In this document: piece after piece, positions 23,909 to 25,535 of the stretch
Layout of the letters: the number at the start of each line of letters is the position of its first letter
How positions within the stretch are numbered: position 1 is the first letter of the stretch
Source: Escherichia coli
GTDB taxonomy: Bacteria; Pseudomonadota; Gammaproteobacteria; Enterobacterales; Enterobacteriaceae
Length of the DNA stretch: 64,000 bases
Assembly (NCBI RefSeq): GCF_002854065.1
Contig: NZ_CP024147.1
Strand: one strand, 5' to 3'
Made by a program: the position numbers and the translations under genes
Notes under the pieces: generated by a model
Told to the model about the DNA's origin: nothing
Databases searched by the model: none
Seen by the model: only the letters and a program-made list of their open reading frames with translations

Positions 23909-23939
23909 TTGACCTTCCCGTAAGGGGAAGGACTATGCT
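23909..23939 (+). promoter_or_regulatory. CueR (MerR-type) dependent cueO promoter
   Basis: -35 TTGACC, 19-bp spacer holding the dyad CCTTCCC-gtaa-GGGGAAGG, -10 TATGCT; this long spacer with an internal dyad is the MerR-family architecture. Confidence 0.75.
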
Positions 23940-23984
23940 CAACGTTTGATTTTGTTTCGCCTGCTTAAGAATAAGGAAATAACT

Positions 23985-25535
23985 ATGCAACGTCGTGATT
24001 TCTTGAAATATTCCGTCGCACTGGGTGTGGCTTCAGCCTTGCCACTGTGGAGCCGTGCAGTCTTTGCGGCGGAACGCCCAACGTTACCGATCCCTGATTT
24101 GCTCACGACCGATGCCCGTAATCGCATTCAGTTAACTATTGGCGCAGGTCAGTCTACCTTTGGCGAGAAAACTGCAACTACCTGGGGCTATAACGGCAAT
24201 CTGCTGGGGCCGGCGGTGAAATTACAGCGCGGCAAAGCGGTAACGGTTGATATCTATAACCAACTGACGGAAGAGACGACGTTGCACTGGCACGGGCTGG
24301 AAGTACCGGGTGAAGTCGACGGCGGCCCACAGGGAATTATTCCGCCAGGTGGCAAGCGCTCGGTGACGTTGAACGTTGATCAACCTGCCGCTACCTGCTG
24401 GTTCCATCCACATCAACATGGCAAGACCGGGCGACAGGTGGCGATGGGGCTGGCTGGTCTGGTGGTGATTGAAGATTACGAGATCCTGAAATTAATGCTG
24501 CCAAAACAGTGGGGTATCGATGATGTTCCGGTGATCGTTCAGGATAAGAAATTTAGCGCCGACGGGCAGATTGATTATCAACTGGATATGATGACCGCTG
24601 CCGTGGGCTGGTTTGGCGATACGTTGCTGACCAACGGTGCAATCTACCCGCAACACGCTGCCCCGCGTGGTTGGCTGCGCCTGCGTTTGCTCAATGGCTG
24701 TAATGCCCGCTCGCTCAATTTCGCCACCAGCGACAATCGCCCGCTTTATGTGATTGCCAGCGACGGTGGTCTGCTACCTGAACCGGTGAAGGTGAACGAG
24801 CTGCCGGTGCTGATGGGCGAGCGTTTTGAAGTGCTGGTGGAGGTTAACGACAACAAACCCTTTGACCTGGTGACGTTGCCGGTCAGCCAGATGGGGATGG
24901 CGATTGCACCGTTTGACAAGCCGCATCCGGTAATGCGGATTCAGCCGATTGCTATTAGTGCCTCCGGTGCTTTGCCAGACACATTAAGTAGCCTGCCTGC
25001 GTTACCTTCGCTGGAAGGGCTGACGGTACGCAAGCTGCAACTTTCTATGGACCCGATGCTCGATATGATGGGGATGCAGATGCTAATGGAGAAATATGGC
25101 GATCAGGCGATGGCCGGAATGGATCACAGCCAGATGATGGGCCATATGGGGCACGGCAATATGAATCATATGAACCACGGCGGGAAGTTCGATTTCCACC
25201 ATGCCAATAAAATCAACGGTCAGGCGTTTGATATGAATAAGCCGATGTTTGCGGCGGCGAAAGGGCAGTACGAACGTTGGGTTATCTCTGGCGTGGGCGA
25301 CATGATGCTGCATCCGTTCCATATTCACGGCACGCAGTTCCGTATCTTGTCAGAAAATGGCAAACCGCCAGCGGCTCATCGCGCGGGCTGGAAAGATACC
25401 GTTAAGGTAGAAGGCAATGTCAGTGAAGTGCTGGTGAAGTTTAATCACGACGCACCGAAAGAACATGCTTATATGGCGCACTGCCATCTGCTGGAGCATG
25501 AAGATACGGGGATGATGTTAGGGTTTACGGTATAA
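23985..25535 (+). CDS. cueO: multicopper oxidase (cuprous oxidase)
   Basis: Start at ATG 23985; Tat signal MQRRDFLK, copper-site motifs HWHG and HCHLLEH, Met-rich insert. Confidence 0.95.

Follow-up and report, generated by a model that had tools for sequence, protein, structure and literature searches.

A cueO locus with a CueR-type promoter, a twin-arginine signal and a Met-rich insert in an Escherichia coli genome

The question raised by this locus is whether a gene that a sequence-only reading had named cueO, and had recorded as known biology with an intact CueR promoter, Tat signal and Met-rich segment, is indeed the copper oxidase gene of E. coli and is preceded by the regulatory signals that were read from it. 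The gene lies in a stretch of 64,000 nucleotides of contig NZ_CP024147.1, referred to as the window throughout. Its name is supported by family profiles and solved structures alike. The encoded protein scores 980.7 bits against the CueO equivalog model NCBIfam NF008205 (cut-off 525, residues 1-516 covered), matches Pfam Cu-oxidase_3 (PF07732), Cu-oxidase (PF00394) and Cu-oxidase_2 (PF07731), which correspond to three cupredoxin domains, aligns over its entire length with crystallised E. coli CueO (PDB entries) and carries the name cueO in RefSeq for the identical sequence. The E. coli paralogue FtsP (SufI) is likewise exported by Tat and folded into three cupredoxin domains, and it can be aligned from residue 2, signal peptide included; the FtsP model gives the window protein 296 bits against a cut-off of 581 and the protein is therefore not FtsP which, to our knowledge, has neither copper ligands nor a Met-rich insert.

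The surroundings are equally familiar. The gene order around cueO is the standard block aceEF-lpdA-acnB-yacL-speDE-yacC-cueO-gcd-hpt, the neighbours of K-12 cueO (b0123, formerly yacK) match those in the window (speED, yacC, cueO, gcd, hpt), and the 1.8-kb region, annotated as yacC / cueO / gcd, was found in 5424 of 5426 complete E. coli genomes. The term "intact" is justified, since CueO is full length, free of frameshifts and in possession of all of its copper ligands. We put at roughly 95% the probability that the locus is the chromosomal E. coli cueO and functions as described for K-12. The finding as a whole is ordinary, already-described biology, the cueO gene of E. coli in a variant form together with its CueR-type promoter, and we agree with the earlier judgement that this is known biology. 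The features that govern its expression are the following.

23909..23914, plus strand: -35 hexamer TTGACC of the cueO promoter P1, read from the sequence and the same as the -35 of PcopA
23913..23931, no strand assigned: CueR operator, a perfect dyad CCTTCCC-GTAAG-GGGAAGG found as an inverted repeat, with the core CCTTCC-N7-GGAAGG
23915..23933, plus strand: 19-bp spacer TTCCCGTAAGGGGAAGGAC, counted, exceeding the sigma70 optimum by 2 bp (MerR-family design)
23934..23939, plus strand: -10 hexamer TATGCT, read from the sequence
23944..23945, plus strand: P1 transcription start, K-12 137,042/137,043 mapped across the identical intergenic region
23973..23978, plus strand: Shine-Dalgarno AAGGAA, read from the sequence, with the ATG 6 nt downstream; the block ATAAGGAA is kept in most orthologue leaders
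23985..25535, plus strand: cueO coding sequence, 516 amino acids plus stop (NCBIfam NF008205, Pfam, PDB CueO, RefSeq)
25555..25586, plus strand: terminator from a terminator scan, ATGCCCGGA-TCTC-TCCGGGCAT followed by a T-rich tail, the hairpin itself spanning 25555-25576

A conventional sigma70 scan of 23700-25700 with spacers of 16-18 bp found no promoter, as is to be expected of a design with a 19-bp spacer. That spacer length, put forward in the earlier reading, was confirmed by an exact count between the two hexamers. The dyad which had been placed within it is also present, as the literal string CCTTCCCGTAAGGGGAAGG at 23913-23931; its parsing into segments of 7, 4 and 8 nucleotides (CCTTCCC-gtaa-GGGGAAGG) has to be revised, the true arms being CCTTCCC (23913-19) and GGGAAGG (23925-31) on either side of a 5-nt centre (7-5-7). 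The core CCTTCC-N7-GGAAGG has a single match in the 64-kb window, even when one mismatch is allowed, against an expectation of 0.09 from shuffles. The same core figures in a cryo-EM study of the CueR transcription activation complex, where the 19-bp spacer is the basis of activation through DNA bending and under-twisting and where a 1-bp shift of the dyad matters for activation, making register important (PMC8169799).

The comparison with the copA promoter that had been proposed as a check bears out the assignment. PcopA of K-12 (TTGACC-TTCCCCTTGCTGGAAGGTT-TAACCT) shares with the cueO promoter the -35 hexamer, the 19-bp spacer and the register of CCTTCC-N7-GGAAGG. Both dyads overlap the 3' end of the -35, their arms fall at identical offsets in an ungapped alignment, and 22 of 31 positions are identical. 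The two promoters differ in the -10 (TAACCT in PcopA, TATGCT in cueO), in the centre of the dyad (CCTTGCT in copA, CGTAAGG in cueO) and in the outer flank of the right arm, which reads GGAAGGT in copA and GGAAGGA in cueO, so that the extended 7+7 symmetry ACCTTCC/GGAAGGT of copA is broken on one side in cueO.

Because cueR itself lies outside the 64-kb window (some 377 kb from cueO in K-12), the designation "CueR promoter" derives from the operator sequence. The regulator gene was found in 5424 of 5426 complete E. coli genomes and is by that measure most probably present in the source genome as well. Comparative genomics has placed cueO in the CueR regulon of E. coli, Salmonella and Yersinia (PMC1526738) and, according to papers citing Outten 2000 and Yamamoto & Ishihama 2005, induction by Cu(I) in K-12 requires CueR; by analogy, the cueO of the window would be copper- and CueR-dependent too. 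We note that E. coli cueR (K-12 513,993-514,400) is at least 99% identical to the K-12 gene in 3205 records and only 90-95% identical in 1593. The regulator gene thus appears, from these sequence comparisons, to be dimorphic in E. coli, with a split far deeper than that at the cueO promoter.

The 165-bp yacC-cueO intergenic region of the window is identical to that of K-12, and K-12 maps of transcription starts can therefore be transferred to it directly (window position = K-12 position minus 113,098). Cappable-seq places a plus-strand start at 137,043 with a score of 6.37, corresponding to window 23945 (PMC4782308), and SMRT-Cappable-seq reports one full-length monocistronic cueO transcript running from 137,042, or window 23944, to 138,675 (PMC6131387). 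The 5' end of cueO mRNA thus lies 5-6 nt past TATGCT. Promoter mapping that placed the start elsewhere had been named as the observation that would speak against the CueR promoter; the public K-12 maps put it at 23944/45, where this promoter would have it. In Klebsiella pneumoniae, too, the cueO start directly follows a CueR-type promoter, TTGACC-19-TAAGCT (PMC3415461). An in-frame TTG at 23946, which would add 13 codons to the protein, was considered as a translation start and rejected: it lies 1-2 nt from the transcription start, has no Shine-Dalgarno sequence, and is further ruled out by the 80 of 80 orthologues that begin with ATG at the aligned position, with leader lengths that are out of frame.

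At the other end of the transcript, the terminator hairpin (fold z = -3.96) separates the convergent genes cueO and gcd, and in K-12 the full-length transcript stops at 138,675, 1 nt past the equivalent hairpin. The two strains differ here: in K-12, a block of REP/BIME-like sequence some 155 bp long (138,677-138,830; window site 25577-25582) lies between the cueO hairpin and the end of gcd; as the window is without this block, its cueO-gcd gap measures 46 nt, as opposed to 201 nt in K-12. Control of the cueO leader by a small RNA or an upstream open reading frame was also considered and dropped, the literature search having returned no report of either; FnrS has been tied to the yobA-yebZ-yebY operon and not to cueO. 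Rfam yielded no RNA family at or near the cueO locus. The sole Rfam match in the window is the sRNA family tp2 at 9921-10034 on the minus strand (103 bits), in the pdhR-aceE intergenic region.

Conservation of the promoter was assessed within and beyond the species. Set against K-12, the window has an unchanged 165-bp intergenic region, while its coding sequence departs at 41 of 1551 nt (37 silent changes) and yacC at 5 of 348 nt. Across E. coli, too, cueO is less conserved than the intergenic sequence in front of it: a 171-bp intergenic query is at least 99% identical in 5366 of 5431 records and the 46-nt promoter core in 5262 of 5424 genomes, while the 1.8-kb locus reaches this level in only 483 records.

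For the wider comparison, 80 orthologue loci from about 25 genera (74-97% amino-acid identity) were chosen by protein similarity, a choice that is for this reason unbiased by the promoter motif. Seventy-nine of them have TTGAC[CG], exactly 19 bp and TA[TAG][GC]CT upstream of the ATG. The -35 is TTGACC in 77 of these and TTGACG in the other 2, and the -10 at the same offset is TATGCT in 39 and TAAGCT in 38. The spacers comprise 42 distinct sequences, every one of them 19 bp long, whereas the stretch separating the -10 and the ATG ranges from 33 to 45 nt (33-36 in other Enterobacteriaceae, 45 in the window) and the upstream flank contains indels. When loci outside Escherichia are aligned without gaps to the window, the 31-bp core shows an identity of 0.82 and the adjacent 31-bp flanks 0.29 and 0.28; by element, conservation falls from 1.00 in the -35 and 0.97 in the left arm to 0.92 in the -10, 0.90 in the right arm and 0.76 in the centre. 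Orthologues, including those known as cuiD, from Salmonella, Citrobacter, Enterobacter, Klebsiella, Kosakonia and others thus share with the window the promoter geometry, in addition to the arginine pair, the copper residues and the position of the Met/His-rich insert. Assignment of the promoter to the MerR-family, CueR-type class is supported by this 80-species footprint together with the PcopA comparison and the start maps.

The right half-site is where E. coli departs from most of its relatives. Its perfect GGAAGG is found in 12 of the 79 loci, while the commonest form, present in 43, is GGAGGG, and most orthologues have an imperfect right half-site. Judging from the sequences, this imperfection may confer on the promoters of other genera a different affinity for CueR or a different level of basal repression. 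Symmetric co-variation of the half-sites (left position 5 with right position 3) is seen in a few genera, though inconsistently, and is not counted as evidence. Only one of the 80 loci, that of Intestinirhabdus alba (locus L075, 1100-1500), is without a CueR-type promoter in the 400 nt preceding the gene; its upstream region is G+C-rich and unrelated. We also note that plasmids in E. coli genomes carry cueO at some 10 places. On pTBE6_2_blaCTX-M-55 (NZ_CP154402.1, locus L003, 4685-10303), cueO and a gcd fragment are flanked by two ISVsa5 (IS4-like) transposase genes and the likeness to the chromosomal promoter starts only within the -10 (window 23936); with the CueR operator and the -35 lost, this mobilised gene cannot be under the control of CueR through its native promoter.

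The start maps contain one further signal that any account of cueO expression has to accommodate.

23892..23904, plus strand: second, weaker start P2, with its transcription start at 23904 and a candidate -10, TAAATT, at 23892-97 (K-12 137,002, two TSS datasets)

P2 starts 41 nt upstream of the P1 start, before the CueR-type -35, and the CueR promoter is hence not the sole start of cueO. TAAATT is plausible as its -10 on sequence grounds. The P2 start sits in a segment of about 13 bp (GATTAAATTGTGT...) which is shared by E. coli, E. albertii, E. whittamii and their relatives within Escherichia and which is missing in other genera. Blocks further upstream that are conserved across genera (AACGTTAGCA, GCGACGA and TTATTATT) fit the divergent yacC promoter, whose start has been mapped to K-12 136,940 (PMC3415461) and 136,938 (PMC6131387), that is, window 23842 and 23840.

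The existence of P2 raises the alternative that cueO is transcribed mainly from 23904, in which case the dyad, at +10 to +28, would serve in the main as an operator or roadblock downstream of the start and not as the heart of an activatable promoter. This is what the data of Kim et al. 2012 would suggest at face value, as they list 137,002, with 20 reads, as the only E. coli cueO start and leave 137,043 out (PMC3415461); Cappable-seq recovers 137,002 to the same nucleotide (PMC4782308). However, the medium used by Kim et al. was a minimal one with trace, EDTA-chelated copper, in which P1 should be quiet. In the Cappable-seq data themselves the P1 start at 137,043 outscores P2 3.5-fold (6.37 vs 1.80), and the sole full-length transcript class begins at 137,042. 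P2, moreover, has no good -35 and is missed by the consensus promoter scan, and its segment is confined to Escherichia, whereas the geometry of -35, 19 bp and -10 is kept in 79 of 80 species. We therefore regard a predominant role of P2 as highly improbable, and take P2 to be a real but minor start, which does not displace the CueR promoter.

A more radical alternative would have the dyad act in RNA, as a hairpin in the long P2 leader tuning stability or translation, rather than as a protein-binding site in DNA. In that leader the arms of the dyad do form a 7-bp G+C-rich hairpin, in minimum free energy and centroid folds alike, and the A-to-G change in the right arm that is common in other genera would still permit a G-U pair. 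Yet neither leader folds better than its shuffles (z = -0.63 for the P2 leader); the main transcription start is downstream of the dyad, so that it is missing from most cueO transcripts; in other genera, which have no P2 segment, the spacing between the dyad and each hexamer is nonetheless constant; and the dyad is the published DNA site of CueR (PMC8169799). We consider this explanation extremely remote, and retain the reading of the dyad as a CueR operator within the P1 spacer. Somewhat less far-fetched, although still unlikely, is the idea that P2 could be a genuine second, CueR-independent basal promoter whose transcript crosses the CueR-occupied operator (+10 to +28) and carries it as a 7-bp RNA hairpin. 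If this were true, cueO of Escherichia would be under an additional layer of control not shared by other enterobacteria, exerted by CueR as a roadblock or through translation that depends on the leader.

The remaining claims concern the protein, whose relevant features are as follows.

23985..24068, plus strand: Tat signal peptide, residues 1-28, with RRDFLK at residues 3-8 (nt 23991-24008) and cleavage after VFA, from the motif and 1kv7_A
24285..24293, plus strand: copper motif HWH (H101, H103), invariant in 81 sequences
24405..24413, plus strand: copper motif HPH (H141, H143), from the sequence and the 81-sequence alignment
25047..25184, plus strand: Met-rich insert, residues 355-400, with 14 Met and 5 His, including the sCu ligands M355 and D360
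25311..25328, plus strand: copper motif HPFHIH (H443, H446, H448), from the sequence and the 81-sequence alignment
25479..25514, plus strand: copper motif with H499, C500, H501, H505 and M510, from the sequence and the 81-sequence alignment

E. coli CueO is a standard Tat substrate. In the window protein the Tat consensus (S/T)-R-R-x-F-L-K takes the form Q-R-R-D-F-L-K at residues 2-8, with Q in place of S/T, and is followed by a hydrophobic core and an AxA-type cleavage site, VFA|AE; the mature crystallised chain 1kv7_A begins at residue 29 of the query, and the RR pair is invariant across 81 sequences. The Pfam profile TAT_signal (PF10518) falls just below its gathering score (21.1 bits vs 22.7, E = 2.9e-4), a near-miss of a short model. 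As this profile alone falls short, recognition of the signal relies on the motif, the mature N-terminus of the crystallised protein and the literature, foremost a cryo-EM study in which a synthetic CueO 1-28 peptide, identical to the window sequence, was seen bound to TatBC (PMC13323110). That this very peptide served as the Tat signal in a structure outweighs the near-miss, and the twin-arginine signal RRDFLK can be accepted as it was read.

All of the 12 catalytic copper ligands of the T1, T2 and T3 sites are present, in the motifs HxH, HxH, HxxHxH and HCHxxxHxxxxM, as are the four substrate-copper ligands M355, D360, D439 and M441, and these 16 copper-site residues are invariant in 81 sequences. 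The Met-rich segment that had been recorded as a string of 45 residues is found exactly, at residues 355-399 (nt 25047-25181). Residues 355-400 hold 14 Met in 46 positions, compared to 3.4% Met in the remaining protein. In CueO, the Met-rich helix over the T1 site shields it from bulky substrates and supplies a Cu(I) site with the sCu ligands M355, D360, D439 and M441 (PMC6155172). Among orthologues the insert is variable, with 18-75 residues and 5-20 Met and an identity of 0.63, as against 0.82 for the rest of the protein. The extremes are found in Trabulsiella odontotermitis (locus L084), with 18 residues and 5 Met in a protein of 489 amino acids, and in Kosakonia, with 75 residues and 20 Met. 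Signal peptide, Met-rich insert and copper ligands are identical in the window and in K-12, from whose CueO the window protein differs by four substitutions, G61E, D165Y, V202M and S271N, at positions that are all variable among orthologues. Residue 165 (nt 24477-24479), which is not a copper ligand, is Tyr in none of the 80 orthologues, where D, E, N, P, A, V or T is found instead.

Elsewhere in the window, the yad fimbrial usher gene is broken by a 1331-bp IS2 (40525-41855). Its sequence agrees 100% with the IS2 annotated in strain CUWW06, where the element occupies a different site. CUWW06 also has an IS1 in its DUF3300 gene (yacH); at the corresponding place in the window, about 17301-17309, there is none.

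The promoter of the window is identical to that of K-12 and the protein 99% identical, and the literature on K-12 suggests how the parts would work together. The MerR-family protein CueR, with its gene in another part of the genome, would bind as a dimer to CCTTCC-N7-GGAAGG within the spacer, which at 19 bp is too long. In the absence of Cu(I), the two hexamers would be out of phase and apo-CueR would keep the promoter poor; Cu(I)-CueR would kink and under-twist the spacer, thereby allowing sigma70 RNA polymerase to contact both hexamers. Transcription from 23944/45 would then yield a monocistronic mRNA reaching to the hairpin at 25555-76, with translation from the ATG at 23985. The 28-residue twin-arginine signal is expected to direct the precursor through the Tat pathway to the periplasm, where the three-domain multicopper oxidase would convert Cu(I) to Cu(II), presenting a Met-rich helix over the T1 site and a Cu(I) substrate site made of M355, D360, D439 and M441.

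As a discovery the locus carries little weight, since the cue regulon, the 19-bp MerR mechanism, the Tat export of CueO and its Met-rich Cu(I) site are all textbook knowledge and have been characterised structurally. It serves as a positive control, in that the reading of raw sequence recovered a class of promoter that scans with 16-18 bp spacers miss. What it yields beyond this is a clean phylogenetic footprint, in which the spacer is invariant at 19 bp over 42 different sequences and the perfect dyad of E. coli is the exception among enterobacterial cueO promoters.
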